Of a DNA stretch of 64,000 nucleotides, positions 13,250-58,144 are shown piece by piece. The notes beneath the pieces were generated by a model that was given only the letters and a program-made list of their open reading frames with translations, was not told the DNA's origin and did no database searches. The DNA is taken from the NCBI GenBank assembly GCA_003158475.1, contig PMJR01000078.1, positions 15,459 to 79,458 on the forward strand, in the 5' to 3' direction. A program made the position numbers and the translations under genes. Position 1 is the stretch's first letter; every line of letters starts with the position of its first letter. The stretch is from Ignavibacteriota bacterium. Lineage in GTDB: Bacteria > Bacteroidota > Ignavibacteria > UBA10030 > UBA6906.

Positions 13250-13258
13250 GGAGTTGCG

Positions 13259-14359: not shown

Positions 14360-14411
14360 GTCGCATTCCTCACATCGTCGTTGTGCGTTTTCATCGTACC
14401 CGGGAGGGGGA

Positions 14412-34308: not shown

Positions 34309-34313
34309 GCCGT

Positions 34314-35339: not shown

Positions 35340-35343
35340 GCCG

Positions 35344-40144: not shown

Positions 40145-40839
40145 CGTGCTCTTTCTCGCATCTGTTGCTCCGCCCTCAACCAATCCTCCGGCCGATCGAG
40201 ATTCACGCTCGCCGACGGGTCGATCATGTAGCCCACCAGCCTCTCCCCGATCATTGAATTCCCTTCCACGATGACGTCCCGGCGCGTCACGTAGACGGAC
40301 CCCTCCCTGTGGAACGCGGAGGGAAGGTCCTGGCGCCTGGGGATCAGACGCTTCTCCCCCGTGCTCAGGCGAAGGTACCCGTCGTCGCCTCTGAAGAACA
40401 CCCAGTGCGGGTTGTGTTCCGGAGGGACGGGGAGGACGGTGATCACCGTCTCCGCGCCGCTCTCTTCCAGCAACGTGATGCACGCGTCGATGTCCGCCTC
40501 CCGACGGAACGGCGTCGTCGGCTGCAGGAGACACACCGCGTCATAGCTTTCCCCCGCCGCTTCCAGGGACCGGAGCGCATGCTGTACCACCGGCAGTGTC
40601 GGGGTCTCATCCCTCGCCAGATCCTCCGGTCGGAGGAACGGGACATCCAGCCCGCATCTCCTGCCAACCTCCGCAATCTCACTGTCGTCAGTGGACAGGA
40701 TGACCCGTGAGAGCAGCCTGGCTCTCAGGGCGGCTTCAGCGGTATACTGCAGAAGGGGTTTGCCCCCCAGCATCCGGATGTTCTTCCGGGGAATTCCCTT
40801 CGAACCTCCGCGCGCAGGTACAAGGCCCAGAACTCGCAT
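40141..40839 (-). CDS. neuA: CMP-nonulosonic acid synthetase (acylneuraminate cytidylyltransferase family)
   Basis: LGLVPARGGSKGIPRKNIRMLGGKPLLQYT, ILSTDD, LLQPTTPFR and REGSVYV are CTP_transf_3 signatures. Confidence 0.9.
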   Translation of the reverse strand: MRVLGLVPARGGSKGIPRKNIRMLGGKPLLQYTAEAALRARLLSRVILSTDDSEIAEVGRRCGLDVPFLRPEDLARDETPTLPVVQHALRSLEAAGESYDAVCLLQPTTPFRREADIDACITLLEESGAETVITVLPVPPEHNPHWVFFRGDDGYLRLSTGEKRLIPRRQDLPSAFHREGSVYVTRRDVIVEGNSMIGERLVGYMIDPSASVNLDRPEDWLRAEQQMRERAR

Positions 40840-40996
40840 CGTGTGCTCACCTACCTCAAGGTTTATTCTGGAACGTCTTTAGCATCGATCCGCCCGACGA
40901 CAAGTCCCTCTTCACGCACATCGCCGAAAAAGAGGTAGCGGAAGCACAAGCGACCGTATCGTTCCGTCCTCATTGCCGAATCCCCCGAATTGCCGG

Positions 40997-42184
40997 TCAA
41001 ATCGGCCGTTCATTCCGGCTCTCCCCCTGATCGTGGATGTAGAATAGCCGTTTCTGAATGTACGGCGTGAGGAGCGCCACGGCCTCGGAGATCCGTTCCG
41101 ACACATGACCATTGCCGTAGAGTGCGCTCGGAGCGTAGCGTCCATGTTTGAGCTGAGCGCGCACGCACTGGACCACCCGGTCGGCGACAGGCGGGACGTG
41201 GGTCACATGGACATCGGTCTCCCTCCCTTCCTGCCGGTTCCCCACAAGGGTCACAGGAGTGCCGAAGTAACTCGCATCCCGCACGAAGCTGCTCGAATTC
41301 CCGACCGCACAGGCCGCTCCTGCAAGGACCTTCAGGTAGACCTCGGGGGGGAGGTTGATCAGCGTCCTGAGCCAGGTCGGTCTTTCATGATCCCTGAATA
41401 CCCGGATGGCCTTCGTGACATGGTCCGAACCGGCATCGATGTTCGGCCAGAGCAGGACTGTCTGCATCGCCATCGTCCTGAGGGCTTCGAGGATCTCCGC
41501 CATCTGTTTCTGTTCCCCTCCGAACTCCGTCGTCGTGGGGTGGAACAGAACCAGGAGAAAGGGCGCCGAGACATCGATTGTCGCCCCGCTCCCCCGGCCG
41601 TTGATGTATTCCGACTTGAGCGAACGATCCATCGTGCGCGCGATGTCGCTGCCGGGGCACCCCACGCCGAGCACCGTATCAGGACGTTCCCCCATGCGGA
41701 TCAGATAGTCCGCGGATCGCTTCGTGCTCGGGAAATGAAAATGGGCGAACTTTGACATCGCGTGGCGGGCGCTCTCATCGATGGACCCCGACACTTCCCC
41801 CCCCTGGATATGGACGATGCAGATGTTCATATATGCCGCCGCGATGGCCGCCGCCAGGGCCTCGTACCGGTCGCCGATCAGGAGTACGATATCAGGCTTC
41901 AGGCGCTGGAACTCGCTTGCGAACTCCATCATCGCGAACCCGACGGACTTCGCCATCGTCGCGGGCGTCGAGCCCTCGAGCTCGATGTAGACCTCGCCGT
42001 CCACGGAAAAGCCGTCCTCCCTGACCACGTGCACCGGCTGGTCGAACCGCTCGAGGACCATCGTTCCCGTGGCCAGGACCTGGAGCTCGAGCGCGGGATG
42101 CGCGCGCAGAGAGCCCATCACCGGCTTCAGACGTCCATAGTTTGCGCGATCGACAAGGACAACACAGACCTTTCGCTTTTTCAT
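40997..42184 (-). CDS. neuC: UDP-N-acetylglucosamine 2-epimerase (hydrolysing), NeuC/LegG-type
   Basis: KVCVVLVDRANYGRLKPVM, LLIGDRYEALAAAIAAAY, and HIQGGEVSGSIDESARHAMSKFAHFHF (signature of the hydrolysing clade). ATG at 42182-42184. The track start at 42193 is a TTG. Confidence 0.9.
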   Translation of the reverse strand: MKKRKVCVVLVDRANYGRLKPVMGSLRAHPALELQVLATGTMVLERFDQPVHVVREDGFSVDGEVYIELEGSTPATMAKSVGFAMMEFASEFQRLKPDIVLLIGDRYEALAAAIAAAYMNICIVHIQGGEVSGSIDESARHAMSKFAHFHFPSTKRSADYLIRMGERPDTVLGVGCPGSDIARTMDRSLKSEYINGRGSGATIDVSAPFLLVLFHPTTTEFGGEQKQMAEILEALRTMAMQTVLLWPNIDAGSDHVTKAIRVFRDHERPTWLRTLINLPPEVYLKVLAGAACAVGNSSSFVRDASYFGTPVTLVGNRQEGRETDVHVTHVPPVADRVVQCVRAQLKHGRYAPSALYGNGHVSERISEAVALLTPYIQKRLFYIHDQGESRNERPI

Positions 42185-42185
42185 G

Positions 42186-43232
42186 TCACTCAAGATATTC
42201 CTCCAGGATCAGCGTGTTGGCGGCAATTGGCTTCTTCAGTATGCGGTGCAGGACGCGTTCCATGTGGTCCTCCGGAATCCCCGTCCCGGGCTTCCGGAAG
42301 GCAAGGTGCTCCTCCGCGAGCACGGTTCCCGCGGGAAGATCCATCCGGGCCACGATGCTTTTCGTGAAGAGCGAGCGGACCTCACCGAGCCCCTTCGCGA
42401 CGGCGTCCTTGTCGACCGGGTGCGACTTCATCCGCTCGATGAACCTGACTCCTTCGACAAGATGCTTCAGCTCGGCGGCGGTGACCGAAGCGGGAACGTC
42501 CGGACCGAACATCTCCCTGCTCAACACGACATGCACCTCCAGGAGGGAAATGCCCATCGTCGCCGCCGCAAGGCCGGGATACACGGTGCCGGAGTGGTCG
42601 GAGAGGCCCACCGCGCAGTTGTAGCGATCGCGAAGGACAGGAATCATGTTCAGTCCGACGGACTCGGGAGGGCAGGGGTACGCCGTCGTACACTGCAGGA
42701 CGACAAAAGGAAGCCGATGAGACCTGATGCGATCGACAGCAGCATCGATCTCGGCCAGCGGGCTCATGCCGGTCGAGAGGAACACGGGGAGGCCCGTCCG
42801 GGCGAGGTGGTCGAACATTCTTGATCCACACACTTCGCCTGAAGCGATTTTCCACGCGGTGACGCCGACACGGACGAGAAGCTCTACCGCCTCGACGGAG
42901 AACGGCGAGCTCAGGAACAGCAGTCCCCGCTCGTCCGCGTGTCGCTTCAGGCCGATCCACTGCTCCTCTGTGAACTCCATGCGCTTCCAGTAGTCAAACC
43001 GGGTCTTGTCCTGCCTGCTGAATTTCACCCGCCAGGTCTCACTCGGCGTGCTCTCAGCCGCGGCGATGTGCGTCTGAAACTTGACCGCGTCGGCACCGGC
43101 AGCCGCAATGGCATCAATGTAGGCGTGGGCGAGCCCCAGGCTTCCGTCATGCGCCTGCGCCACCTCCCCGATGAGGAGGCAACGCCCGCTCACCGGTGTG
43201 TATTCCATGGTCCTGAAGTCCAGCATGTTCAC
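42186..43232 (-). CDS. neuB: Nonulosonic acid synthase (NeuB/LegI/PseI family) with C-terminal SAF domain
   Basis: LLIGEVAQAHDGSLGLAHAYIDAIAAAGADAVKFQTH, WKIASGE, LSTGMS and GLSDHSG, with C-terminal SAF-like SIVARMDLPAGTVLAEEHLAFRKPGTGI. Start uncertain: GTG at 43232, or ATG at 43226 or 43208. The sugar identity (Neu5Ac, Leg or Pse) cannot be read by eye. Confidence 0.9.
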   Translation of the reverse strand: MNMLDFRTMEYTPVSGRCLLIGEVAQAHDGSLGLAHAYIDAIAAAGADAVKFQTHIAAAESTPSETWRVKFSRQDKTRFDYWKRMEFTEEQWIGLKRHADERGLLFLSSPFSVEAVELLVRVGVTAWKIASGEVCGSRMFDHLARTGLPVFLSTGMSPLAEIDAAVDRIRSHRLPFVVLQCTTAYPCPPESVGLNMIPVLRDRYNCAVGLSDHSGTVYPGLAAATMGISLLEVHVVLSREMFGPDVPASVTAAELKHLVEGVRFIERMKSHPVDKDAVAKGLGEVRSLFTKSIVARMDLPAGTVLAEEHLAFRKPGTGIPEDHMERVLHRILKKPIAANTLILEEYLE

Positions 43233-44277: not shown

Positions 44278-45597
44278 CTATGCTCCCGGGGGCAGGGCCG
44301 GTGACTCGATATTTGCGGGGGGTGGCATGCATTCCATCGCACGCGATCCCACGAACCACTCATGAGGGATGAGGGCCGCTCCATGTTTCCGTATGAGTGG
44401 CTCGGCCCCCGTGCCGAAGTAGTCGGCGGTGACGACCTGCATCTCCGCGGCGCGCGGCACAAAGTCGGACATCCCCCCGCGGTAGGCGAGCCACAGGTCG
44501 ATCCCGTACACTTCAGCGGCCAGCGAGAGACTCTCGACTTTGCACACCATGAGCCCGTCGCTCTCCACCTTTCCCCGCGGGACCGGAGAACTGAACCGTG
44601 TCGAGAGCGTGGAGATCGGGTGCCCCATGACATCGGTGAACCGCATGTCCAGGACGAAGTCAAGGGGCTCCAGCCCCTTGAGCTTGGTCGTGTACCCGAC
44701 GCTGAAATAGACCGGATCGCCCGTCCCCACGCTTGTGACTTTTCTCCCCTGTGCGTCGAAGCATGCAAACGACTTCAAACGGATGACGCCGTCTCCCCGC
44801 CTGTCCGTCCGCAGCTCGAGGTCCTCTTCGCTCGATTGATGCTCCTTGACGTACATGCCGATGGCGTCACTGGTGTCGCCGAGGTACGCCACACGGCCCC
44901 CCTCCAGGACCACGGTTCTTGAGGCGAGTCGGGAAATGGCCGTCATGTCATGACTGACGAACAACACCGTCCGCCCCTGCTGCGCCACTTCCCCCATCTT
45001 GCCAAGGCATTTTCTCTGAAAGGCGGCATCACCGACAGCCAGCACCTCATCGATGAGCAGCACATCGGGTTCGAGGTGGGCGGCGACCGCAAACGCCAGA
45101 CGCAGGTACATCCCCGACGAGTAGTGTTTCACGGGAGTGTCAATGAATTTCTCGACCTCAGAGAACGCCACGATATCGTCGAACCTGCGCCCGATGTCCT
45201 TCCTTCTCATGCCGAGGATCGCAGCGTTCAGATAGATATTCTCCCTCCCCGTGAGCTCGGCGTGAAAGCCGGTCCCGACCTCGAGCAGGGAGCTGAGCCT
45301 GCCGCGGATCTCCGCGTACCCGGTCGTCGGTTCGGTGATCCTGGAGAGCACCTTGAGCAGCGTGCTCTTGCCCGCCCCGTTGCGGCCGATGATCCCGATG
45401 ACTTCTCCCTGACCGACCTCGAATGAAACGTCCTGGAGCGCCCAGATCGTCCCCGACTTCCGGCCGGACTTTGAGCGGCGGAACATGGATTTCGCGGCGT
45501 CGGTCAGCTTGTCGCGAAACGTCTGATATCCGGCCTGCTTCTCCCCGATCCGGAATTGCTTGGAGAGACCCACGACCCTGACGGCCTGCTCAGTCAT
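44278..45597 (-). CDS. wzt: ABC-2 glycan exporter ATP-binding protein Wzt/TagH-type with a C-terminal extension (putative Wzt_C carbohydrate-binding domain) of about 190 aa
   Basis: Walker A GIIGRNGAGKSTLL, signature YSSGMYLRLAFA and Walker B LLIDEVLAVGD. A beta-rich extension follows (GDGVIRLKSFACFDAQGRKVTSVGTGDPVYFSVGY...). ATG at 45595-45597 (MTEQAVRVVGLSKQF). The track extension to 45843 overlaps wzm and is rejected. Confidence 0.9.
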   Translation of the reverse strand: MTEQAVRVVGLSKQFRIGEKQAGYQTFRDKLTDAAKSMFRRSKSGRKSGTIWALQDVSFEVGQGEVIGIIGRNGAGKSTLLKVLSRITEPTTGYAEIRGRLSSLLEVGTGFHAELTGRENIYLNAAILGMRRKDIGRRFDDIVAFSEVEKFIDTPVKHYSSGMYLRLAFAVAAHLEPDVLLIDEVLAVGDAAFQRKCLGKMGEVAQQGRTVLFVSHDMTAISRLASRTVVLEGGRVAYLGDTSDAIGMYVKEHQSSEEDLELRTDRRGDGVIRLKSFACFDAQGRKVTSVGTGDPVYFSVGYTTKLKGLEPLDFVLDMRFTDVMGHPISTLSTRFSSPVPRGKVESDGLMVCKVESLSLAAEVYGIDLWLAYRGGMSDFVPRAAEMQVVTADYFGTGAEPLIRKHGAALIPHEWFVGSRAMECMPPPANIESPALPPGA

Positions 45598-45656
45598 GGG
45601 AGCTCCTCCCCGGCGCCGCGCATGGCGGGGCGGACGCGGCCACGACGGACACGCGG

Positions 45657-46514
45657 TTAGACAACATCGGCAAAATTCCTTTCCATCCTTTTGAAATAGT
45701 ATGCTCCGCTCACCATCATGATCACTGCGACGCCGGAGGAGGCCAGGATGATGGGTCCCGGCTGCGTGTGCGAGCCAAGCAGCGACCAGCGAAATCCTTC
45801 CACCACGCCGGCCATCGGGTTCAAACCATACAGCGTGCGCCACGGTTCAGGCAGCATGCTGCTCGGGTACGCGATGGGAGTGGCGTACATCCAGAACTGC
45901 GTCAGAAACGGGACGGCGAACCTTACGTCGCGGTATTCGACATTCAGCGCGGAAAGCCAGAAGCCGACGCCGAGAGAGGTCACCAGCGTCAGCAGGAAGA
46001 AGAAGGGAAGCCAGACCATGTTCATCGAGGGTGTCACCGCGTAGTACACCATCATGATCACCAGAATGGCCAGGGCGATCAGGAAGTCCACGATCCCCGC
46101 GAAGAGGCTTGCGATCGGTATGGTCAGGCGGGGGAAATAGACCTTCTTGATGAGATTCTGGCTCCCCACCAGGCTGTTCGATGACTGGGCCAGGCCGTAG
46201 ACGAAGAGGGTCCACGGGACGAGCCCGGTAAAACTGAATATCGGATACGGAATGCCGTCGGAGGGAATTTTTCCCAGGCGACCGAAGAATATGCTGAACA
46301 CGACCACAGTAAGCAACGGCTGTATGATCGCCCAGGTCGCTCCGAGGACGGTCTGCTTGTAGCGGATTTTGATATCCCGCCACGTCAGGAAATAGAGGAG
46401 TTCACGGTACTCCCAGAGCTCACCGAGCCGGAGGGACACCCATCCTTTTGAGGGTTCGATGCGCTGCACGCGGAGATCCTGAATGTCCGCGGATATCTGA
46501 GCCGAGTTCATCAT
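45657..46514 (-). CDS. wzm: ABC-2 type glycan exporter permease
   Basis: LWEYRELLYFLTWRDIKIRYKQTVLGATWAIIQPLL is the canonical Wzm/TagG N-terminal motif, followed by 6 TM helices. Confidence 0.9.
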   Translation of the reverse strand: MMNSAQISADIQDLRVQRIEPSKGWVSLRLGELWEYRELLYFLTWRDIKIRYKQTVLGATWAIIQPLLTVVVFSIFFGRLGKIPSDGIPYPIFSFTGLVPWTLFVYGLAQSSNSLVGSQNLIKKVYFPRLTIPIASLFAGIVDFLIALAILVIMMVYYAVTPSMNMVWLPFFFLLTLVTSLGVGFWLSALNVEYRDVRFAVPFLTQFWMYATPIAYPSSMLPEPWRTLYGLNPMAGVVEGFRWSLLGSHTQPGPIILASSGVAVIMMVSGAYYFKRMERNFADVV

Positions 46515-46533: not shown

Positions 46534-47274
46534 TCACCACGTTACCATTGCGCTGACCGGATCGATGCTGTCGAACATCGAAATTCGCCCGACCGGTCCG
46601 TCGGCCGCCAGCGCCCCCCTGTACCCCCGCGGGAGCGGGAGATCGAGGAGATGCCAGCGGCGCTCCTGCACCGACGGAGCCGAGGAAACATCGATGGCCC
46701 GCAGATCGAGTGAAATCCCTCCTCCAAGCGCCTTGACATAGGCCTCTTTTCTCGACCAGATCGAGTAGAACAAGTCTTCCATGACCGCGCCCGTACGCTC
46801 ATCAAGCATGCGCAGTTCGGCCGGACAGAAACATTTCCCGGCTATGGCCCGGACGTCCAGATCAGTCCTGATCCGTTCGATGTCCACCCCGACCTCCCGG
46901 CCGGCTGCAACGGCGACCAAGACGAGGTCACCGGAGTGCGACATATTGAACCGGATGGCCCCTGCCGAGTGCGGGCTTCTCAACGAGGGCTTGCCGGATC
47001 CCGGTGCATACATGAGACCGGCGGGGCGGGATCCCGTATACGACGCGAGGAGACGCCTCAATCCGCCGTGCGCCGACACGAAACGATCCTTATCGTCACG
47101 GGAGCGGAATGCGCGTCCCCGTGCCCGTTCGCCTGCGGAGAGCTCAGGCTCGTACTCCGCGAGAAGGGGGGCATCCACGAGCCCCGGCAATCGCCAGAGG
47201 TGCACTTCTCCCTCCCCGGGGAGCAGCGTTATCCCAACGGATGGGGAGGTCACAGGGCCCCCCTTCACTGTCAT
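46534..47274 (-). CDS. Sfp-type 4'-phosphopantetheinyl transferase
   Basis: DKDRFVSAHGGLRRLLASYTG, FNMSHSGDLVLVAVAAGREVGVDIERI and FYSIWSRKEAYVKALG (PPTase motifs 1-3). The track start at 47328 is a TTG inside the NRPS. ATG at 47272-47274 lies 4 nt after the NRPS stop, and ATG at 47295 is also possible. Confidence 0.85.
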   Translation of the reverse strand: MTVKGGPVTSPSVGITLLPGEGEVHLWRLPGLVDAPLLAEYEPELSAGERARGRAFRSRDDKDRFVSAHGGLRRLLASYTGSRPAGLMYAPGSGKPSLRSPHSAGAIRFNMSHSGDLVLVAVAAGREVGVDIERIRTDLDVRAIAGKCFCPAELRMLDERTGAVMEDLFYSIWSRKEAYVKALGGGISLDLRAIDVSSAPSVQERRWHLLDLPLPRGYRGALAADGPVGRISMFDSIDPVSAMVTW

Positions 47275-47278
47275 CTCT

Positions 47279-50200
47279 TCAGTCGGGATGCGCATGCCGT
47301 TCGAACGCGCGTTCAAGACATTCCGCAAGTTTTTGTGCGACGACAGAGACGTACGGCATCTGGAACATCGTCAGATGGTCCCCCGTGACGTCGTGTATTT
47401 CCACCCCTCCGAGGGCGAGTTTCCCCCATCCCTGTTCGCGATCGTGGAATTCGCCGACGGACCTTGTGCTCGCAGGGAAGAGCGTGATCCGCCCGGTGTA
47501 AGGCCGGGGGATATAGTTCCGTATCGCCACGATATTCAATTGTTCCACCTTCCGTAGCGCGGGGGGAAGCCGCAGCTTTTTGTTCGCGTACCTTTTGTAC
47601 TGCAGCCCCCAGACCTGCGTGCCGATCCTCCTCCTGAGCGTCCTGGACTTCCTGCGGATGTAGTCGAGCCGTCCAGGGTGGACCAGGAGATTCCGGACGT
47701 GATAGTGCATACGCTCCACCGAGCTTTCCCATTTGAACCGGGAAATTTCGCTCTTTGTCAATGTTCTGATGTGGCTGTGGGCGAATGTATCGAACATCGC
47801 CAGCATGCCGATCTTCTGGCCGGCCGCATGCAGCTGCTGCGCGATTTCATATGCCACGATGCCGCCCGTGCACGCGCCACCGAGGTAGTACGGTCCTTCG
47901 GGTTGGAACGCCCGTATCTCCCGAACGTAACGGGAAGCCATATCCTCCACGCGGTCCAGGGGGAATTCCTTGCCGTCCAACCCCACCGCCTGGAGACCGA
48001 ATACCGGTTGGTCGGGACCCAGCCGGGGAGCGAGCTCAGAGTACCCGATCACGTTTCCCCCTGCGGCGTGAACGCAGTAGAACGGGGGCCGGGATCCTCC
48101 GGGTTTGATCGCCACAAGAGACGACCATGATGAGGTCTTTTCTTCTCGGCGCAGAAGAGCCGATATGCCCTCGATCGTCGGTGCTTGAAAGAGAGTCGCC
48201 AGCGGGAGGTTCTTTCCGGTCAGTTTTTCAATCTGAGCGAAGAGCCTCGCCGCGAGCAGCGAGTGCCCCCCCAGCTCGAAGAAGTTATCGTGCACTCCGA
48301 TCGGCTTCTTTCCGAGGAGCGACTCCCAGAGATTCGCGAGCCGGATCTCGAGGGGATCCCGCGGGGCCACGTAACTACCGGCAGGTCGTCCGGGAGCCAC
48401 CGGGGGAGGAGGGAGGGCACCCCGGTCGATCTTGCCGTTCGGCATGATCGGTAACCGCTCCAGGAAGACGATGGCAGAAGGAAGCATATACCCCGGCAGT
48501 TTTTTCGCCCCATGTTCGACGAGATCTTCGACAGGAACTGATCCTCCCTTTGCACACACACAGTAGGCAACAAGCTGCTTCTCGCCGGACGGAGCGTCAC
48601 GGACCACCACGGCGACATCCTCCACTCCACGGTGCTCCCTGAGCACCGACTCGATTTCACCGGGCTCGACACGGTACCCCCGTATTTTCTCCTGCCTGTC
48701 CACCCGTCCCAGAAACTCGATGTTGCCGTCGGGACAGAAGCGAACGAGGTCTCCAGTCTTGTATAGTAAGGATCCTCCACGCGAATCGATGTGATTTCGG
48801 ACAAACCTCTCTGCCGTCAAACCGGGTTGGTTCAGGTACCCCTGTGCCAGCGTCGGCCCGCCGATGTGCAATTCTCCCGGGAACCCTGTCGGGGAAGGGG
48901 CGCCGTAGCGGTCAAGAACATACACGACGCGGTTGCGCAAAGGACGACCGATCGGGATTCTTGTCACGACCGCCAGCTTCTCATCGGGGAGTTCCCCGCA
49001 GTCATAGACCAGCGCGGTGACCGTTGTTTCTGTCGGGCCGTATGCGTTCAGGAGACGGACATGGCCAAACGAACTCCTCCTCCATCGCCTGAGCGCCTCC
49101 GGCATCATCGCCTCGCCGCCTATGATCATGAGCCTAAGAGAGTGATCCACCGGGGGATGATCGGAATCAGGAGGATCCATGGCAACCGCGTGCCAGTACC
49201 CTGTCGGAAGATTCACGACGGTCAGCCCCTGTGCAACGATCTGTTCCCACAGTTCCTTTGCACTCCAGAGTTCCTCACCACGGAGGACAAGGCGCGCGCC
49301 GCCGGTCAACGTCGTAAAGATCTGCTCGACGGAGGGATCGAAGCTCAGAGACGCGAATTGAAGGACCCTGTCACGGGGACCGATCCCGTACATCTCCCTG
49401 CACGCCGAGCAATGGCTCGCAATCGCCTGATGAGTAATGACCACCCCCTTCGGCTTTCCGGTCGAGCCGGAGGTGAACATTATGTAGGCCGGATGTGACC
49501 CCATGGACCTGTGTCGCGGATCAGTCCCGTCGCAGCGGTCGATTATCTCACGGTCGGTGTCACACAACACGCGCCGAACTCCGGAGCCATCCAGAATGTC
49601 GTCGAGCGGCGACTGGGTCACCACCAGTGGCATTCCCGTATCGGCAATCATCCCTCTCAGGCGTTCCCGCGGGTACCCCGGATCGAGGGGGACAAATGCT
49701 CCGCCGGCCTTGAGGATACCCAGCAGCGCGACGATCATTTCAACGGAGCGCTCCATGCACACCCCTACCGCCACCCCCGGTCCCACTCCAAGCGACATGA
49801 GATGGTGTGCCAGCCTGTTGGCTCTCAGATTCAGCTCACGATACACAAGTTGTTGTCCGCTCGAGGAAACCGCGACGGACTCCGGATGTTGCGCGGCCTG
49901 CTCTTCAAACCCCACGTCGATGCACTGATCGGGCCCGGTGCCTGGCGGGATGTTGTTCCACTCGACGAGCACCCTGTGCGATTCACCTGAAGTCATCAAC
50001 GGGAGTTCGGAGATCCGGCGGGAGGGATCCTTGACGATTCCTTCCAGCAGTACGTGAAATCGTTCGGCCATCCGACCAATTGCGGCCGGCTCAAAAAGGC
50101 CCGCATTATATTCGAATGACGCTCCCAGTCCCCCCGGCGAATCCGTCATCGTGAGCGTGAGATCGAATTTCGAGGTCCCATTGGAGATTTCAAGTCCCGC

Positions 50201-51454
50201 CACGGCGAGGCCGGGGAATTCAAGCGCGGACGTCGGCGCGTTCTGGAGCGCAAACATGACCTGTATGAGCGGGGATCGGCCAAGAACCCGTTCAGGATGG
50301 AATTCTTCAACAAGCCGCTCGAACGGGAGATCCTGGCTGGCAAACGCGCCGAGCGCGGTCTCCCGCACGCGCTGGAGGAGATCCAGGAACCGGGGGTCGC
50401 CGGAGAGGTCCGTGCGCAACACGAGAGTATTCACAAAGAACCCTATGACACTTTCCAGACCGGGACGGGCCCGGCCGGCCACAGGAGTCCCCAGGAGGAT
50501 ATCATCCTGACCTGTCATTCGATGCAGGAATACTCCAAAGGCAGCCGCCAACGTCATAAACAGGGTTACACCATTGCCGCGGCTCATTTGCCGCAGCTCT
50601 TCCGAGAGTGCCGCCGGGTATGCCACCCGCCAATCCCCGCCTCGACGGGGTTGTGCGTCACCCTGGAGGCGATCCCCCGGCAATTCCAGGACCCCTGCAT
50701 GTCCTGCCAGCCGGGACTTCCAGTAACCAAGCTGCCGCTCGAGCACCGTGTCGCTCAAATACCCGCGTTGCCAGACCGCGTAGTCTCCGTACTGGATCGG
50801 CGGCTCCGGAAGCGGCGACGGGAGCGACTGCACATACGCACCGTACAGCAATCGAAGTTCGTCGAGGAAAACCCCAACAGACCATCCGTCAAAGATGCTA
50901 TGATGGATGATTATGACGAGGATATGCTCATCCGGGTTCAGCCGGAGGAGATGGACCCTGAAGAGAGGCCCCCGCTCAAGGTCAAACGGCGTAGAGGCTT
51001 CACGGACGGTGAGTGCCATGGCACTCGCTTCCCGGTCAGGTTCGTCCGATCCCGGCATGTCCAGCGCCTGAAGCGCAAGAGGAACCAGCGGCGCGATGAT
51101 CTGCACCGGCCCATCATTCACTACTTCGAATGTGGTTCTAAGGACCTCATGGCGGCGCAGGATTTCGTTGAAGGAATGTTCCAGCGCAAGGATATCCAGC
51201 TTACCTATGCATCGGAAGGCCATGGGGATATTGTAACTGGCGCTCCCGGGGTCCAGGCGCTGGAGAAACCACAATCGTTGCTGAGCGAAGGAGAGGGGAA
51301 TCCGGTCATGGTGCAGCCGCCGCGGGATCTCCCGGTCCCCCGCAGGACCGGCAGCCCCCTCGGTCAGGATCCTGTCAAGGAGTGACTGTCTGGCCGGCGA
51401 TAGTTTTGAGCGGCGCGTTGCCGGGTCCTCGAATTCTTGCATCGATCCCTTCAT
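47279..51454 (-). CDS. NRPS module 3: C-A-T-TE, with GxCxG (Cys) thioesterase
   Basis: C: LSFAQQRLWFLQRLDPGS, HHSIFDGWS. A: YIMFTSGSTGKPKGV, NAYGPTE, YKTGDL, GRVDRQEKIRGYRVEPGEIE, NGKIDR. By-eye Stachelhaus code DPENIGAVTK. T: FFELGGHSLLA. TE: PFYCVHAAGGN, YYLGGACTGG (Cys codon TGC at 47870-47872), FDT and GDH. Start uncertain: ATG at 51454 or 51442 after the upstream stop, or ATG at 51517 with a 29-nt overlap. Confidence 0.93.
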   Translation of the reverse strand: MKGSMQEFEDPATRRSKLSPARQSLLDRILTEGAAGPAGDREIPRRLHHDRIPLSFAQQRLWFLQRLDPGSASYNIPMAFRCIGKLDILALEHSFNEILRRHEVLRTTFEVVNDGPVQIIAPLVPLALQALDMPGSDEPDREASAMALTVREASTPFDLERGPLFRVHLLRLNPDEHILVIIIHHSIFDGWSVGVFLDELRLLYGAYVQSLPSPLPEPPIQYGDYAVWQRGYLSDTVLERQLGYWKSRLAGHAGVLELPGDRLQGDAQPRRGGDWRVAYPAALSEELRQMSRGNGVTLFMTLAAAFGVFLHRMTGQDDILLGTPVAGRARPGLESVIGFFVNTLVLRTDLSGDPRFLDLLQRVRETALGAFASQDLPFERLVEEFHPERVLGRSPLIQVMFALQNAPTSALEFPGLAVAGLEISNGTSKFDLTLTMTDSPGGLGASFEYNAGLFEPAAIGRMAERFHVLLEGIVKDPSRRISELPLMTSGESHRVLVEWNNIPPGTGPDQCIDVGFEEQAAQHPESVAVSSSGQQLVYRELNLRANRLAHHLMSLGVGPGVAVGVCMERSVEMIVALLGILKAGGAFVPLDPGYPRERLRGMIADTGMPLVVTQSPLDDILDGSGVRRVLCDTDREIIDRCDGTDPRHRSMGSHPAYIMFTSGSTGKPKGVVITHQAIASHCSACREMYGIGPRDRVLQFASLSFDPSVEQIFTTLTGGARLVLRGEELWSAKELWEQIVAQGLTVVNLPTGYWHAVAMDPPDSDHPPVDHSLRLMIIGGEAMMPEALRRWRRSSFGHVRLLNAYGPTETTVTALVYDCGELPDEKLAVVTRIPIGRPLRNRVVYVLDRYGAPSPTGFPGELHIGGPTLAQGYLNQPGLTAERFVRNHIDSRGGSLLYKTGDLVRFCPDGNIEFLGRVDRQEKIRGYRVEPGEIESVLREHRGVEDVAVVVRDAPSGEKQLVAYCVCAKGGSVPVEDLVEHGAKKLPGYMLPSAIVFLERLPIMPNGKIDRGALPPPPVAPGRPAGSYVAPRDPLEIRLANLWESLLGKKPIGVHDNFFELGGHSLLAARLFAQIEKLTGKNLPLATLFQAPTIEGISALLRREEKTSSWSSLVAIKPGGSRPPFYCVHAAGGNVIGYSELAPRLGPDQPVFGLQAVGLDGKEFPLDRVEDMASRYVREIRAFQPEGPYYLGGACTGGIVAYEIAQQLHAAGQKIGMLAMFDTFAHSHIRTLTKSEISRFKWESSVERMHYHVRNLLVHPGRLDYIRRKSRTLRRRIGTQVWGLQYKRYANKKLRLPPALRKVEQLNIVAIRNYIPRPYTGRITLFPASTRSVGEFHDREQGWGKLALGGVEIHDVTGDHLTMFQMPYVSVVAQKLAECLERAFERHAHPD

Positions 51455-51488
51455 CAGTGACACTCGGCTTTCACCGCAGGCCTCACCA

Positions 51489-54400
51489 TCACTTTGTCCG
51501 CCCCGACACTTCATCATCGCTTAAATTCTCGATGTGATCGAGGAGCTTCTCCTCGATCGCCAGAGCCAGCGCACCGACCGTGGGGTATTCAAAAACACTC
51601 ACCAGCGAGAGATCAATCTGCCATCGGTCACGGATGCGCGAGACGACCTGCATTGCGAGAAGCGAATGTCCGCCCAGCGAGAAAAAATTGTCATTGATGC
51701 CCACACGCTCGACACCAAGGGTACGGGCGATGATTCCTGCCAGGGCCTTCTCGGTCGGCGACATCTCCTCCCCCGTCACATCCCCCCCGTCCACTGCCCC
51801 CCGTGGTGCCGGGACGGAAAGAAGCATGCGATCGACTTTGCCGTTGGAATTGCGGGGGAGCGCATCACAAAAGACGAATGCGGACGGGATCATGTATTCG
51901 GGCAGTTTCAGCTTCAGAAACTCCCGCAACGCGATGGCACGGTCGGCGGATCCCCCGTCCATGGCACAGTGTGCAACCAATCGTCTGTCGCCCGGCGCAA
52001 CCTCGGTGACGGTGACCACCGCCTCGCGAATGCCCGGATGCCCGGCGAGAACCGCCTCGATTTCCTCGAGCTCGACCCGGAAGCCCCGGATCTTTACCTG
52101 GTTGTCGACCCGGCCGATGAATTCGATGTTCCCGTCAGGGGAGAACCGGCCAAGATCGCCCGTCCTGTACAGGCGCTCCGGGAAGTCGGAACCGGCGGGA
52201 CCCGTCACGAAATTTCGCGCAGTCAGATCCGGACGGTTGAGATATCCTCGGGCGAGACCATCGCCTGCAACGAACAGCTCTCCGGGAATCCCGACAGGGA
52301 CAGGCTGCATAAACCTGTCCAGTATGTATACCCGGGTATTCCGGATGGGATGTCCGATCGGAACGGAGGTCGTAATCCGGGTCTTATCGGCGACGGTGTA
52401 ACAACAGGTGAACGTTGTATTCTCTGTCGGTCCGTAACCGTTGATCAACCTGCACCGGGGGTGCCGTTCCAGGAATTTCCTCACCTGCGGAACCGAGAGA
52501 ACTTCCCCGCCGGTGAGCAATTGCCGCACGCCCCCCAGGAGGTCCAGCGGTCCATCAACCATCTGGTGGAACAGGGAAGCCGTCAACCAGAGCGTCGTCA
52601 CACCCCTGTCCCTGATAACGCGGCCGAGCTCGTCGAGAGAGGGAAGGTGTCGGGGGAAAATGACGAGCCGGGCTCCGTTCAACAGGCTCCCCCAGAGCTC
52701 AAATGTGGACGCGTCGAACGAAATGGATGAAAACAGGAGGAAGACTTCGCCGGAGTTCAATGTCGCATAATCATTTGATCTGACCAGACGCACGACCCCG
52801 CGATGAGGGACGCACACGCCCTTCGGGACACCCGTCGAGCCGGAGGTATACATCACATATGCCAGCGCGTCCGGCGAACCCGCGGGGGGAAGGTCTTCAT
52901 CGCTTTCGCGCGCGATATCTTGCCATTCCGCGTCCAGCAAGATCACCTCCGCAGACCCGGGAGGAAGTTCATCCTTATGCGACCGGTGTGAGAGGATGAT
53001 GCTCACATGGGCATCATCGAGAATAAACGAGACCCGTTCGCGGGGGTACGAAATCTCCAGGGGAACGTATGTTCCTCCGGTCTTCAGAATGGCGAGCAGG
53101 CCGACGATCAAGTCGGCCGATCGGTCCAGGGCAACACCGACGCAGGATTCCGGCCCCACTCCCCGGGCACGAAGGAAACGCGCAAGCCTGTTCGCCCGCG
53201 AATTCAAGTCCCGGTACGTGACCTGATGGAGATCATCGTGCAGGGCAACCGCGTCGGGCGATTTCCGGGCCTGCTCCTCGAAGAGAGCGGAAATTGTCAT
53301 TCCCGAGGGATAGTCGGACTGCGTGGCGTTCCACGTGGTCGTCACCTTGCGCCTTTCCGCCTCGGTCATCATCGGGATCTGCCAGAGACGCCGGCCGGGA
53401 TCTGCCACAATCCCTTGGAGGAGAGCGATGAAATTCCCGGCCATGCGCCTGACGGTCTCCGGTTCGAACAGGTCCGCACTGCACTGGAGCCATCCCACCA
53501 ACTCACCACTTCGTTCCATCATTGAAAGCGTCACATCAAACTTCGCCGTATCTGTGCCGACGTCGAGCTTGTTCGCGAGGTTCCGCCCCAGCGTGATTCG
53601 CCCTTCAGGGGCGCTCTGCAGCACAAACATCACCTGAAAGAGGGGAGAATGCGTGAGACTTCGTTGCGGGTGGAGTTCCTCTACAATCCTCTCGAATGGG
53701 ACTTCCTGATGTTCGAGTGCCCCCAGACAGACTTCGCGCGTGCGTTTCAACAACTCCCGGAATGTCGGGTTTCCCTCCATGTTCGTCCGCAAAACGAGTG
53801 TGTTCACGAAAAACCCGGTCAGGCCCTCAATTTCCATGCGCGTGCGCCCGGCAATGGGTGTTCCGACGATCAGATCATCCTGACCGCTGCACCGGGAAAG
53901 CAGGACGTCGAATGCCGAAAGCAGGGTCATGAACAGTGTCACCCCCTCCTCCCTGCTGAGCTGCGTCAACCCGGCATAGAAAGAAACCGGGACGGTGAAA
54001 AATTCAGTCACCCCCGTTTGGGTCTGTACCGCAGGGCGCATCCTGTCCGCCGGCAGTTCCAGCACCGGCAGGGTCCCTCCCAGCTTTTTCCTCCAGTAGG
54101 CAAGTTGTTGTTCGAGGACCTCTCCCTGCAGCCATTCCCGCTGCCAGAGCACGTAATCCCCGTACTGGATGGGCAGATCCGGCAGCACGTGTTCCCCCCC
54201 GCGGGGAGTCGCTTCATAAAGGGCGGACAACTCCCCGAAGAATACGTTTTCGGACCACCCGTCGAAGACGATGTGGTGGAACACGAGCACCAGCAAATAT
54301 TCTTGCTTGCCCAACGTGATGAGTGCCACCCTCATCAACGGGCCCCGTTCCAGATCAAACCCCCTGTGCGCTTCCTCATGAACGAGGAGCATGGCCGCAG

Positions 54401-54812
54401 ACTCACGATCTCCTTCCGCCACAGAACGGAGGTCCCGGATGTCCACGCTCACGCCCGTTGCGGGGCCGACTTTCTGGAGAGGGTCTCCGTCCACGGAGGT
54501 GAACGTCGTCCGCAACACCTCGTGCCGGCGCACGATCTCCGTCAATGCGCTCTCCAGGGCTTCCACGGACACCTCCCCGTGCAACCTGTAGGCGTACGGG
54601 ACGTTGTAGGTTGACCTGCCGGGCGTCAAACGGTCCAGAATCCACAAACGCTGCTGTGCGAATGAAAGGGGGAAGGGGCCCTTCCTCTCGCGGCGGCCGA
54701 TGACGACGGAGTGCCCCGGCGCCCCTGCACCTGCAAGTCGCTTCGCCAGCAACTCCCGCTTCGACGCAGAGAGCGTCGACCGACGTCCTGTCACACCGTC
54801 CGGATCAGCCAT
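51489..54812 (-). CDS. NRPS module 2: C-A-T (predicted Val)
   Basis: C: LSFAQQRLWILDRLTPGR, HHIVFDGWS. A: YVMYTSGSTGVPKGV, NGYGPTE, YRTGDL, GRVDNQVKIRGFRVELEEIE, NGKVDR. By-eye Stachelhaus code DAFWLGGTFK, the canonical Val-type code. T: FFSLGGHSLLA. ATG at 54810-54812 overlaps the upstream stop by 8 nt. Confidence 0.93.
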   Translation of the reverse strand: MADPDGVTGRRSTLSASKRELLAKRLAGAGAPGHSVVIGRRERKGPFPLSFAQQRLWILDRLTPGRSTYNVPYAYRLHGEVSVEALESALTEIVRRHEVLRTTFTSVDGDPLQKVGPATGVSVDIRDLRSVAEGDRESAAMLLVHEEAHRGFDLERGPLMRVALITLGKQEYLLVLVFHHIVFDGWSENVFFGELSALYEATPRGGEHVLPDLPIQYGDYVLWQREWLQGEVLEQQLAYWRKKLGGTLPVLELPADRMRPAVQTQTGVTEFFTVPVSFYAGLTQLSREEGVTLFMTLLSAFDVLLSRCSGQDDLIVGTPIAGRTRMEIEGLTGFFVNTLVLRTNMEGNPTFRELLKRTREVCLGALEHQEVPFERIVEELHPQRSLTHSPLFQVMFVLQSAPEGRITLGRNLANKLDVGTDTAKFDVTLSMMERSGELVGWLQCSADLFEPETVRRMAGNFIALLQGIVADPGRRLWQIPMMTEAERRKVTTTWNATQSDYPSGMTISALFEEQARKSPDAVALHDDLHQVTYRDLNSRANRLARFLRARGVGPESCVGVALDRSADLIVGLLAILKTGGTYVPLEISYPRERVSFILDDAHVSIILSHRSHKDELPPGSAEVILLDAEWQDIARESDEDLPPAGSPDALAYVMYTSGSTGVPKGVCVPHRGVVRLVRSNDYATLNSGEVFLLFSSISFDASTFELWGSLLNGARLVIFPRHLPSLDELGRVIRDRGVTTLWLTASLFHQMVDGPLDLLGGVRQLLTGGEVLSVPQVRKFLERHPRCRLINGYGPTENTTFTCCYTVADKTRITTSVPIGHPIRNTRVYILDRFMQPVPVGIPGELFVAGDGLARGYLNRPDLTARNFVTGPAGSDFPERLYRTGDLGRFSPDGNIEFIGRVDNQVKIRGFRVELEEIEAVLAGHPGIREAVVTVTEVAPGDRRLVAHCAMDGGSADRAIALREFLKLKLPEYMIPSAFVFCDALPRNSNGKVDRMLLSVPAPRGAVDGGDVTGEEMSPTEKALAGIIARTLGVERVGINDNFFSLGGHSLLAMQVVSRIRDRWQIDLSLVSVFEYPTVGALALAIEEKLLDHIENLSDDEVSGRTK

Positions 54813-57800
54813 GGGGTTTTTCCCCGGCAGTAAAAAGATGTGCATTTCGTTCACGGACCGTCTCCTCATCCGACAGTCTCTCGACTTCTTCCAGCAACCT
54901 CCGCTCGATGGTGGAAGCCATGGCAGAAAGCGACGGCGCGTCGAACACGTCCGGAAATCGCAGATCAATGCTCCACCGGGCATGGATGCGCGACACAAGC
55001 TGCATCACGAGCAGGGAATGGCCGCCGATGTCGAAGAAATTGTCGGCGGCTTTTATCCCCTTCACGCCGAGCAACTCCTCCCAGAGTTGGCTCAGGGACT
55101 CCTCGATCGGCGTCAAAGGCGTCTCCAGGACCTCCTGTTCATGGATCAAATGACTGCCATGCGCGGAAAGGGCGTGCCGGTCCACCTTCCCTCTTGAATT
55201 CAACGGCATGAAGTCGACCCGGGCAAAAACCGCCGGCACCATGTACTCAGGAAGCAGCCTTCTGGCGTGAGCTCGCAGCTCGTCTCCCGCAAGGGGTGAT
55301 TCACCTCCGGGGACGAAATACGCCTCCAGCCGCTGCTCACCATTGGGTCCTCTTCGCACGATCACCGCGGTTTCACGCACCCCGTCATGCTCGAGCAACA
55401 CTGATTCTATTTCGCCGAGTTCGATCCGGTACCCGCGGATTTTCACCTGGTCATCGGTGCGACCGAGGAACTCCAGGGTCCCGTCCGGAAGATACCTGGC
55501 AAAGTCCCCGGACCGGTACAGCCGGGATGCAGGATCACCGGAGAATGGATCCCGCACAAACCGTTCCGCCGTAAGTTCAGGACGATTCAGATACCCGCGG
55601 GCCACACCGGCCCCCCCGATACAGAGCTCGCCTGGAACGCCGACGGGCAGAGGCCGCATTTCGCGATCGAGCACGTAAAGACGCGTATTCGCGATCGGCC
55701 TCCCTATGGGGATCGAGCCTGCAGGCGGGATACCTGCTGGAACCCGGTAGACGGAGCAGCCGACAACGGTTTCCGTCGGACCGTATTCATTAAAAAGAGC
55801 TGCTGCGGGAGCTATCTTTTGCCAACGGACGGCGAGGTCCGCCTTCAGATTCTCCCCCCCTATGACAAATGTCACCTTCAGAGCCGCGCCCGCTCCCGGA
55901 GGAATGAGCGCTGCGAGCAGCTCCAGATGAGCGGGGGTGATTTTTACAAGGCTGCAATCAGCGTGCGCCAGGAGCACTGCGGAGAGATCCTCGGGTCGTG
56001 ACGATTCCGGCAGAAGATGAACGGTGCGACCACACAGAAGAGGCGAATACAATCCAGTGACGGTCAGATCAAAGGCCAGAGGACTGTGCACGAGCGAGCC
56101 CCCCCCCCGGCGCACATCGTACGCCTCCGTGCACCAGAGAAGGTAATTCGACAGTCCACGATGCAGAACAACGGTCCCTTTAGGCCTCCCTGTCGATCCC
56201 GACGTGTAAATGACGTAGGCGGCATTCTCGGGCCCCGCACGGCCCGGCATGTTTGCCGCCTTCATTGCGTCACCAGCGTGATCCGCCCCAGGCATTTCCT
56301 CCGGAAATACGAGGGGTACCCCCTGCCTGCTGAAGAGACCGGCCAGATTCCTCGAAGCAATGACGAACGACGGACGGGCATCATCCTGAATGAATCGCCG
56401 ACGATCTTCAGGGAGCGCCGGGTCAAGGGGGAGGTATGCGCCTCCGGCTTTGAGAATTGCAAGGAGACACATCACCATTTCGCACGACCTCTCCAGGGCG
56501 ATCCCCACTACAACTTCCGGCCCAACCCCGAGCGCCGAAAGATGGCGAGCGAACAGGTTTGCGCGATGGTTCAGCTCCCCGTAAGTCCACTGGTCTTTCC
56601 CGCAGGAGACCGCCACGGCTTCCGGGGACAGGTCTGCCTGAACTTCGATGAGCTCGTGAACACACGGAGGCGGGCTGCCGGCGACGTCTGTGGCGTTCCA
56701 TTCCCACAGGATCTGCCGTTCTTCTTTCTCCGTAAGCAGAGGGATTTCGCCCACGCGTTGATCGTGGCGTGCCGCCATGGAGGTCAAGAGAGTCTGCAGG
56801 TGCCCCAGCATCCGTTCGACAGTCGGGGGAGTGAAACGGGCCCTGGAGTAGGTCAATCGCAACACACCTTCCTCACCGTGGATCTCGAACACCAGCGGAA
56901 AGTGTGTCTGGGAAAGCACGGAGAACTCGCGTTCGCCCCGGGCGGCCCTCCGGGATCGCATCTGCGCCTTCAGGCCCAGGTGATCATAGACAAGGAGCGT
57001 CTCAAAGAGAGCCCTGCCTCCGGCCACCCGGCTCCATCCCCGAATCCGTCCGAGCGGTGTTTGCTCGTGCTGGCGGACAGCCGAATGGTCCCGTCGCAAT
57101 TGTCGTAGCAACTCCATCAGCGGCGTCTCCGGCGGGACGCGGACCCTGAGCGGGACGGTATTGATGCAGCAGCCGAGGATCCTCTCCGCACCGTTCACCG
57201 TCGACCTGCGACAGGCCCTCGTCTCCCCGAAGACGACGTCCGTGACTCCGCTGTAGCGACTCAGCAGCAGCCCCCAGGCCGCGTGGAACACGGTGCTCAA
57301 TGGTACCTGTGATGCAGCGACCAGCTCGCGGAGCCCTGAGAGCACCGGGGGGGGAAGCTGCAGAGCGCATCTGCCGACGGCAAGGCCCTCCCCCCCCGGG
57401 GACCCGGGCTCCGGAGGAAGCGGTGTCGGGTCCGTGAACCCCCGGAGATAGTCCGTCCAGAACGATTCAGAGCGGTCGTGATTCCTTTCACGTGCCCAAT
57501 CGATGTATGCGCGGAACGGGACCCGCTCTTCCACCACCGGTACCGTCCCGGCGCACAGGCATTCATATGTCAGGAAGAGTTCTTCGAGCAGGAGCGGAAA
57601 TGCATGGCCATCGAGGAGCATGTGGTGCAGCGTCACGACCAGGAATGACTGATCAGCGTCCATTATGAACGCCGCCAACCGGACGAGGGGAGGGCTGCCG
57701 GGGTCGAATCCCCTCCTGCGGTCTTCTTCCAGGTGGACGTCGAGGAGTTCCCTCCCCTCCCCCGAAGACATCATGCTCCAGTCACTGATGAGGATGGCGG

Positions 57801-58050: not shown

Positions 58051-58095
58051 ATCTTTGCCGAGCTTCCCCCCGGAGGGGGGTGTGAGAACAAAATC

Positions 58096-58128
58096 GGGCA
58101 GGACATTTGCATGAACAATGTCCTGCCC
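58096..58128 (-). terminator. Strong hairpin (11-bp perfect stem, 11-nt loop) followed by a U-rich run; putative intrinsic terminator or attenuator between the dehydrogenase gene and the NRPS operon
   Basis: GGGCAGGACAT (58096-58106) pairs with ATGTCCTGCCC (58118-58128). On the minus strand the hairpin is followed by GATTTTGTTCTC. It lies 17 nt after the stop at 58145 and 46 nt before the NRPS1 ATG. Confidence 0.45.
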
Positions 58129-58144
58129 GCGGAGAAACCATGAG

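Follow-up and report, generated by a model that had tools for sequence, protein, structure and literature searches.

A conserved cysteine-type thioesterase closes a nonribosomal peptide synthetase within surface-polysaccharide loci of Ignavibacteriota

The subject of this article is a thioesterase (TE) domain at the end of a nonribosomal peptide synthetase (NRPS) of three modules, built from condensation (C), adenylation (A) and carrier (T) domains. It is encoded in a 64,000-nucleotide stretch of DNA from an Ignavibacteriota bacterium (assembly GCA_003158475.1, contig PMJR01000078.1), which we call the window. By sequence and fold this is a true type I NRPS thioesterase whose triad reads Cys-Asp-His, and the cysteine that stands in the usual place of serine is very probably its nucleophile. 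In the layout of its triad, the TE resembles the enzymes AB3403, BulbE-TE and MacB/PmxB-TE, and not the ring-forming thioesterases of ObiF and SulM. Together with the gene for a phosphopantetheinyl transferase (PPTase), the NRPS genes are a fixed component of surface-polysaccharide loci in Ignavibacteriota. The best overall explanation we can offer, and we offer it tentatively, is a Cys TE with amide-forming release, possibly onto a sugar amine. Cys-dependent NRPS thioesterases are wanted as biocatalysts for difficult amide-forming release and only about four of them have been characterised. What we define here is a further clade, uncharacterised and well conserved, with an invariant Ala-Cys-Thr elbow. 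Cys TEs with a canonical triad were already known as a class; the conserved placement of the NRPS and PPTase genes in surface-polysaccharide loci is, to our minds, the more interesting part.

The thioesterase and its cysteine

The gene of the third module encodes a protein of 1412 residues that holds all the peptides quoted in the original prediction: PFYCVHAAGGN, GPYYLGGACTGGIVAYEIAQQL, MFDT and TGDHLTMF. Pfam divides this protein into a Condensation domain (residues 71-513), an AMP-binding domain (537-895) with its C-terminal subdomain (954-1029), a PP-binding domain (1059-1122) and then, directly C-terminal to the carrier, the Thioesterase family PF00975 (1145-1386). The match to PF00975 reaches 82.6 bits, where the cutoff stands at 26.4, which bears out the claim that the line ends in a type I TE. 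The fold gives the same answer. The top Foldseek matches are all type I TEs at a probability of 1.00, namely 7crn, AB3403 (4zxh), NocB, the TE of fatty acid synthase (FAS), Vlm2, Pks13 and EntF.

A cysteine in place of the catalytic serine had been read at positions 47870-47872, and the reading was right. The codon is GCA on the plus strand and therefore TGC on the coding, minus strand, within the elbow motif GGACTGG, and a phmmer search against the Protein Data Bank (PDB) pairs the residue with the cysteine of AB3403 (GGWCFGG). The same alignment pairs MFDT with MIDT and GDHLTM with GDHSSI, so that the other two members of the triad, Asp and His, are retained as had been supposed. An AlphaFold2 (AF2) model of the TE built from 116 homologues, with a mean predicted local distance difference test (pLDDT) score of 92.9, places Cys88 between a strand (82-87) and a helix (89-103), Asp115 directly after the strand at 108-114 and His253 in the loop preceding the last helix. 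As modelled, this is the canonical topology of an alpha/beta-hydrolase, with Cys after beta5, Asp after beta6 and His after beta8. The spacing from Cys88 to Asp115 is 27 residues. The coordinates of these residues, and of the other features discussed below, are collected in Table 1.

Table 1. Features of the NRPS genes and their neighbourhood (positions count from the first nucleotide of the window)
Feature	Position	Strand	Basis
NRPS module 3 gene, C-A-T-TE, 1412 aa, 4239 nt, stop codon included	47279-51517	-	Open reading frame (ORF) list, translation, Pfam
TE domain as analysed, residues 1129-1412	47282-48133; PF00975 envelope ~47360-48085	-	Pfam, AF2, Foldseek
Cys88 of the TE (residue 1216 of the protein), G-A-C-T-G elbow, very probable nucleophile	47870-47872	-	Sequence, AB3403 alignment, orthologues
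Asp115 of the TE (MFDT), triad acid, canonical site after strand beta6	47789-47791	-	Sequence, AB3403 alignment, AF2 model
His253 of the TE (GDHLTM), triad base	47375-47377	-	Sequence, AB3403 alignment; clade-invariant
TE lid, residues 119-207, three long helices, net charge +17	47513-47779	-	AF2 secondary structure
Module 3 carrier (T/PCP, peptidyl carrier protein) domain, GGHSL motif	48152-48343	-	Pfam PP-binding, residues 1059-1122
Module 3 adenylation domain, code DPENIGAVTK, Glu at position 3	48431-49909	-	Pfam, code versus GrsA
NRPS module 2, C-A-T, code DAFWLGGTFK (Val-type)	51489-54998	-	Pfam, A code
NRPS module 1, C-A-T, code DLTKVGEVGK (Asn-type), no loading module	54805-58185	-	Pfam, A code
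Sfp/HetI-type PPTase, directly downstream of the TE	46534-47328	-	Pfam ACPS, NCBIfam HetI-like
UDP-N-acetylhexosamine (UDP-HexNAc; ManNAc/GlcNAc-type) 6-dehydrogenase, directly upstream of module 1	58145-59446	-	Pfam, NCBIfam
Glycan-export ABC transporter: Wzm 45657-46514 and Wzt 44278-45843 with Wzt_C	44278-46514	-	Pfam
Nonulosonic-acid genes: NeuB 42186-43232, NeuC-type 2-epimerase 40997-42193, CMP-transferase NeuA 40141-40839	40141-43232	-	Pfam
DegT 35344-36495, GT2 34314-35339, CE4 polysaccharide de-N-acetylase 33451-34308	33451-36495	-	Pfam, NCBIfam

The cysteine is not an isolated curiosity of one contig. To find orthologues we aligned the TE sequences nearest to ours and scanned with them, which gave metagenome loci (L085-L091 in our numbering) and loci from species-representative genomes (L092-L096), the latter belonging to four Ignavibacteriota metagenome-assembled genomes and one labelled Bacteroidota. 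The TE-clade alignment was needed for this, the whole 1412-residue protein having returned only generic NRPS relatives, at 47% identity or less, from the GTDB species genomes. After deduplication there are 12 distinct sequences, the window included, with TE DNA identities of 57-91%, and the other 11 come for the most part from Ignavibacteriota metagenome-assembled genomes; L089 was assessed separately. The motifs A-C-T-G-G, LAMFDT and G(D/N)HL(T/S)M are kept in all 12. The Ala and Thr that flank the cysteine are invariant, as is Asp115, which is present in at least 90% of the TE family. The cysteine codon is TGC in some members of the clade and TGT in others and, because Cys is kept in 12 sequences with both synonymous codons, the residue is under purifying selection. 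Every one of the other distinct orthologues (11 of 11) carries Cys. TGC is one substitution away from the serine codons AGC and TCC, but the chance that it is a sequencing or assembly error is negligible and we reject it for practical purposes, since JGI 3300050352 and ENA ERZ27254216, both public assemblies, carry the 4239-nt gene with exactly the same DNA and the 11 further orthologues encode Cys by either codon.

How unusual is such a cysteine? Cys TEs had been called rare, which is true of known TEs, about 2% of which carry Cys (PMC13288461), but not of the subfamily to which this one belongs. An exhaustive phmmer search of 1.84 billion cluster representatives returned 6229 relatives at E<=1e-30, and we counted residues in the 178 TE domains aligned through the elbow in the best 150 of these 6229 proteins, all of them representatives of 50%-identity clusters. 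The nucleophile is Ser in 123 of the domains and Cys in 46 (26%), and 23 have the full Cys-Asp-His triad. With cysteine in about a quarter of a large AB3403-like subfamily, Cys can no longer be assumed to signal the formation of strained rings. On a crude tree of 162 domains, made by the unweighted pair group method with arithmetic mean with the nucleophile column masked, Fitch parsimony puts Ser at the root and about 21 Ser/Cys changes above it. All the neighbours of our TE from outside the clade (at or below 51% identity) have Ser and, for that reason, we regard the ACTGG clade as one independent, fixed and lineage-specific switch from Ser to Cys. The polar Thr after the cysteine is itself unusual, most relatives having Phe, Met, Leu, Ser or Ala in its place.

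The lid of the TE, whose three helices span residues 127-206 in the model, is strongly basic, and we rejected the idea that its charge betrays an anionic co-substrate such as a UDP-sugar or an undecaprenyl-diphosphate-linked glycan. The subfamily mean is +11.7 +/- 4.9, whether the nucleophile is Ser or Cys, and single values reach +22, against +17 here. As for why TEs of the AB3403-like subfamily should have a basic lid of about 89 residues, membrane association or anionic substrates could be the reason.

An assembly line inside a polysaccharide locus

The three NRPS ORFs are co-oriented and read C-A-T, C-A-T and C-A-T-TE. We extracted the adenylation codes by comparison with GrsA, the reference sequence of which reproduces DAWTIAAICK at the canonical positions. 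The codes of modules 1 and 2 are retained in the orthologues; the third is either DPENIGAVTK or DAERVGLVAK, both with Glu at position 3. Both resemble DAESIGSVCK, which we take to be a Lys-type code, a lead and not a test. Glu at code position 3 typifies 'mode 1', the way in which A domains recognise diamino acids that range from 2,3-diaminopropionate (Dap) to Lys (PMC12042044). The peptide predicted from the codes is Asn-Val-diamino acid.

The start of the line is less conventional. The first C domain of module 1 (~56700-58050) has an intact HHxxxDG motif (HHMLLDG) and the N terminus LSPMQEGMLF, and the PDB entries that it matches best are McyB C1, TycB C1 and the C domain with which PvdL begins, an acyl-accepting one; the starter C domains of RzmA and CDA are not among these best matches. 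Judged by these features, it is DCL-like and apparently active, not a classical starter domain. Neither the 64-kb window nor, in two of the orthologous genomes, the 10 kb on the upstream side yielded a loading module, an acyl ligase or a free carrier protein.

The conservation of module 3 is uneven. In the distant orthologues the TE is 61-64% identical and the C and A domains 40-48%. Taken together, the C-A part (48431-51307) is 40-48% identical in L086-L088, L093 and L094, which have the code DAERVGLVAK, compared with 61-67% for T-TE; the alignment of the truncated L086 is partial. It was tempting to read this as a TE held constant by a conserved acceptor. We dropped that argument as it fails in the closest orthologue, L096, where the TE is 66% identical and the C and A domains are 76-79%. 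The pattern looks like replacement of the C-A unit, by mosaic evolution or module swapping, and on that account we do not use domain-wise conservation as evidence. Close by, the JGI 3300050352 contig (L080, ~1829) falls out of register with the window at ~51690, about 170 nt upstream of the TE gene, where the module 2 gene has its 3' end; the samples differ there by an indel or by a variant of the assembly.

What surrounds these genes is glycan biosynthesis. The whole window is a polysaccharide locus in which Pfam finds Wza, Wzz-like, Wzx and Wzy-like genes and Wzc, along with initiating transferases, many glycosyltransferases of families GT2 and GT4, dehydratases, epimerases, NeuB, NeuC, NeuA and Wzm/Wzt. 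Three DegT aminotransferases had been noted in the locus and the Pfam scans recover all three, along with three CE4 de-N-acetylases. The NRPS genes are packed on one strand between the UDP-HexNAc dehydrogenase and the PPTase-Wzm pair, and this placement is conserved. In every locus with enough flank, the order is Wzc, UDP-HexNAc dehydrogenase, NRPS1-3 and PPTase. The PPTase holds its position in all the orthologous loci; upstream, L111 and L112 preserve the order Wzc, dehydrogenase, NRPS1, their dehydrogenases being 83-87% identical to that of the window and in the same position.

Beyond the PPTase the loci fall into two types. In the first, Wzm is followed by an epimerase, NeuB, NeuC, Wzt, two GT4 genes and DegT (L085/L096), and shorter contigs (L082, L083 and L089-L091) show the first part of this order. 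Wzm comes after the PPTase in seven related loci, and the Neu genes are syntenic in L085/L096 and L091. In the second type, the PPTase is followed by a KpsF-like SIS/CBS protein and a MOP-family flippase (L093-L095). Counting both types, adenylation-domain, carrier and PPTase genes lie inside glycan loci, with synteny in 11 related loci. The GT2 of the GT2/CE4 pair in Table 1 comes back at about 60% identity in loci of the second type (L088, L094 and L095) and is co-conserved with the NRPS; a CE4 gene (59% identity) stands beside it, within the range fetched, only in L087/L094. We did not adopt an ArnB/C/D-like reading of the DegT, GT2 and CE4 trio, the NCBIfam scores lying far below the curated cutoffs.

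Relatives of the Ser type offer a simpler version of the same arrangement. Two cultured Bacteroidota, Mucilaginibacter pineti 47C3B (L100, 8171-10828) and Pedobacter sp. MC2016-24 (L103, 8186-10819), have stand-alone A-T-TE enzymes with Gly-type codes (DILQLGMVWK and DILQLGVIWK, respectively) and a Ser TE, which in both belongs to the same subfamily as ours. The Mucilaginibacter gene sits amid an exopolysaccharide locus with Wzc, a Wzy-like gene, Wzx, a hexapeptide acetyltransferase, GT4, GT2s and Acyl_transf_3, and the Pedobacter gene has a PPTase downstream. A single glycine has no internal nucleophile for cyclisation and so productive release from an A-T-TE enzyme implies an external acceptor. 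This suggests that these enzymes transfer glycine to polysaccharide. One of the orthologous Ignavibacteriota loci, L093, has right after its PPTase an extra C-A-T-TE gene (11480-15772) with a C domain lacking HHxxxDG, the Gly-type code DILQLGMIWK and a Ser TE (GGSSFGG), so that Cys-TE and Ser-TE NRPS genes lie side by side.

Several other features of these loci caught our eye. The window carries both a Wzx/Wzy/Wza/Wzc pathway (2494-4185, 6579-8177, 31985-33394 and 59514-61949) and the Wzm/Wzt transporter (44278-46514), and some orthologous loci keep the NRPS while swapping Wzm/Wzt and NeuABC for the KpsF-like gene and MOP flippase. Immediately upstream of Wzc there is a conserved, very large protein with a C-terminal FlgD-Ig-like domain (L111, 2-5422; L112, 1-5580). 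It exceeds 1800 residues in the orthologues; the one ORF called at this place in the window (62578-63942), near the window's end, has 454 residues. Downstream of Wzm, L089 has a gene absent from the window (5633-9550) for a hybrid of 1306 residues that joins AMP-binding, a ketosynthase-N-like stretch and a ketoreductase (KR). The release factor gene at 4404-5495 was checked for an RF2 frameshift and is an ordinary RF1-like ORF.

How the peptide might leave the enzyme

The mechanism we favour would run as follows. The three modules would make a tripeptide, predicted to be Asn-Val-diamino acid and perhaps N-capped by way of the DCL-like first C domain. The peptide would pass from the pantetheine of the T domain to Cys88 by transthioesterification, an energy-neutral step. 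An amine would then resolve the reactive thioester acyl-enzyme, and the product would leave as an amide instead of a free acid. The favoured amine would come from the glycan pathway, in which the DegT or CE4 enzymes could provide it on an amino sugar or on a sugar residue stripped of its N-acetyl group, and the outcome would be a surface polysaccharide decorated with peptide.

These steps do not carry equal weight. That release forms an amide at all strikes us as probable. Behind this lies the chemistry of two characterised enzymes. BulbE-TE, from the bulbiferamide pathway, forms an indolylamide macrolactam, has its Asp after beta6 and only hydrolyses when its Cys is changed to Ser (PMC11536411). 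MacB/PmxB-TE, of macolacin and polymyxin biosynthesis, forms a macrolactam through the side-chain amine of 2,4-diaminobutyrate (Dab), with the triad Cys89/Asp116/His218, and the Cys-to-Ser variant of MacB-TE likewise only hydrolyses (PMC13288461). In both variants acylation and hydrolysis are kept and amide formation is lost (PMC11536411, PMC13288461), and it is argued that acyl-thioesters are far more reactive than oxoesters towards aminolysis and similar towards hydrolysis (PMC11536411). The proposal in the original prediction that a thioester acyl-enzyme would favour amine acceptors agrees with these variants.

That the acceptor is a glycan or sugar amine is a good deal less secure, and we put it forward as a possibility that could well prove wrong. 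We favour it because the NRPS keeps its place in glycan loci throughout, because DegT and CE4 enzymes that can generate amines are encoded there and because A-T-TE enzymes offer an analogue. More doubtful still is its fullest form, in which the Cys TE is a peptidyl transferase giving an Asn-Val-Lys/Orn-like tripeptide to a free sugar amine of the nascent surface polysaccharide; the co-conserved GT2/CE4 pair would expose this amine or a DegT enzyme would make it. In loci of the Wzm/Wzt type, the peptide might even be a non-reducing-end cap that is read by the C-terminal domain of Wzt. If the peptidyl-transferase reading holds, the Ser TEs of the Bacteroidota A(Gly)-T-TE enzymes would be its O-acylating counterpart.

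The alternative that survives best is intramolecular. Here the side-chain amine of the diamino acid attacks the Cys88 thioester to give a lactam, a caprolactam from Lys or a piperidinone from Orn, and the product is a small molecule only loosely tied to the glycan genes. We think this rather unlikely, although it has real attractions. Both third-module codes have Glu at position 3, and the diamino class is kept even where C-A has diverged; MacB/PmxB-TE, with the same Cys-to-Asp spacing, uses the Dab side-chain amine and, on change of Cys to Ser, only hydrolyses (PMC13288461), and BulbE-TE likewise uses an internal nitrogen (PMC11536411). Lactam release would, however, leave the constant placement in polysaccharide loci, from the dehydrogenase to PPTase-Wzm, unexplained. 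Orn and Dab thioesters cyclise readily and need no Cys for it, and TEs of the same subfamily occur in the single-Gly A-T-TE enzymes, which have no internal nucleophile.

Ordinary hydrolysis, with Cys as a near-equivalent of Ser and a linear tripeptide acid set free, is unlikely too, and we rank it just below the lactam. The 26% of nearest TE domains with Cys and the frequent Ser/Cys switches on the crude tree speak for it, as do the similar rates at which thioesters and oxoesters hydrolyse (PMC11536411). Yet across the 12 sequences of the clade, whose DNA identity falls as low as 57%, the cysteine codon varies synonymously and never reverts to Ser. The Ala and Thr beside it are invariant too, and 4 of 4 characterised Cys TEs need their Cys for non-hydrolytic release.

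Several considerations weigh against release onto a glycan amine, and they deserve to be set down together. The triad in the model was judged by topology. The adenylation predictions rest on 10-residue codes and, in part, on the reference codes with which these were compared. With some 21 switches among 162 domains, Ser and Cys interchange so frequently that Cys may not always signal special chemistry. The basic lid does not discriminate, being a trait of the whole AB3403-like subfamily. Clustering with glycan genes is circumstantial. The intramolecular amine of the predicted C-terminal diamino acid would explain a Cys TE with no glycan at all. Our searches of the available literature found no precedent for an NRPS-modified polysaccharide and, to our knowledge, no NRPS TE has a precedent as a transferase to the amine of a glycan. 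Should the TE nevertheless couple peptide to glycan, it would represent both a new TE function and a new route to peptide-decorated polysaccharides, and Ignavibacteriota would possess a glycan decorated with a non-ribosomally made peptide.

Comparison with known systems

The best-known Cys TEs are those of ObiF and SulM, and it was with these, and their beta-lactone and beta-lactam products, that the original prediction drew its analogy. The analogy does not stand. They share with our TE a Cys nucleophile, which is essential for their non-hydrolytic release, but belong to a RifR-like lineage, and their triad Asp has moved to a later strand, leaving Gly in ObiF1 where the canonical Asp would be (PMC6668435, PMC11298585); Asp115 here is at the canonical site, position I. 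The SulM TE has a Gln-Cys-Asn motif (PMC11298585) where ours has Ala-Cys-Thr, and its last A domain is Dap-specific, by 'mode 3' recognition (PMC12042044), with Asp at code positions 8 and 9 that DPENIGAVTK lacks. A profile of the clade finds ObiF1 only at E=0.024 (16.8 bits) and gives no match to the SulM TE at E<=10, and neither is among the Foldseek top 50. With the window's scanned ORFs also devoid of sulfotransferase and Dap-synthesis genes, formation of a strained ring is very improbable, having in its favour only the shared Cys and the chance that the diamino acid is Dap, and we reject membership of the ObiF/SulM group.

The closest Cys-type relative with a solved structure is AB3403 (ABBFA_003403) of Acinetobacter baumannii (PDB 4ZXH/4ZXI), which matches at E=1e-23 with a TE-only profile and 2.4e-80 with a T-TE profile and ranks fourth in Foldseek. 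First place goes to a Ser TE, 7crn/7dxo, ahead of AB3403 by phmmer against the PDB, by Foldseek and with the clade profile; the same profile scores the FAS, Pks13 and NocB TEs at 1e-17 to 1e-20. AB3403 has the same C-A-T-TE architecture, an elbow cysteine (GGWCFGG compared with GGACTGG) and Asp after beta6, and the SulM paper names it as the one further Cys TE to have been characterised structurally and notes its Asp at position I (PMC11298585). There are differences. The TEs are only ~24-30% identical, AB3403 is loaded with Gly and receives its donor on a carrier protein that stands alone, and the cited papers do not place it in a polysaccharide locus. It offers no functional guidance. For that one turns to BulbE-TE and MacB/PmxB-TE, whose Cys-Asp-His triads also have Asp after beta6, with Cys89/Asp116 in MacB-TE against Cys88/Asp115 here. 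Their likeness rests on the published layout of the triad, AB3403 being the only one of the three that we compared by sequence. They differ in that their substrates are hexa- to decapeptides, which they close into macrocycles by way of an internal nitrogen, whereas the line described here has three residues and a glycan gene context.

For a type I TE that works on carbohydrate, the precedent is Pks13, the mycolic acid condensase, whose TE moves an acyl chain to a sugar acceptor, trehalose. The Pks13 TE is also the best NCBIfam match of our domain, with full-length coverage at 80 bits, a score well below the whole-protein cutoff. Both it and the TE of animal FAS share the large helical lid, but with a Ser nucleophile, lipid substrates, O-acyl transfer or hydrolysis as their chemistry and identities of about 20%.

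The chemistry we propose has its nearest parallels outside the thioesterases. In the N-acylation of Nod factors, NodC and NodB expose an amine, and NodA then acylates it with the group that the carrier NodF holds. The Dlt and AlmEFG systems, whose A and carrier proteins are encoded with envelope genes, place D-Ala or Gly on teichoic acids or glycolipids. The likeness to Nod is that a GT2 and a CE4 de-N-acetylase expose a sugar amine that is acylated from a carrier-protein thioester, as we propose here, and the CE4 protein at 33451-34308 has a weak match to the NodB family in NCBIfam. To Dlt and AlmEFG, it is the presence of NRPS-like A and carrier genes among envelope genes. In these systems, single acyl or aminoacyl groups are transferred, not a tripeptide, and the transfer falls to NodA, AlmG or DltB/D, not to a TE. 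Pfam scans of the window ORFs reveal no transferase of the NodA, AlmG or DltB/D type; here it is the TE that would have to fill that role.

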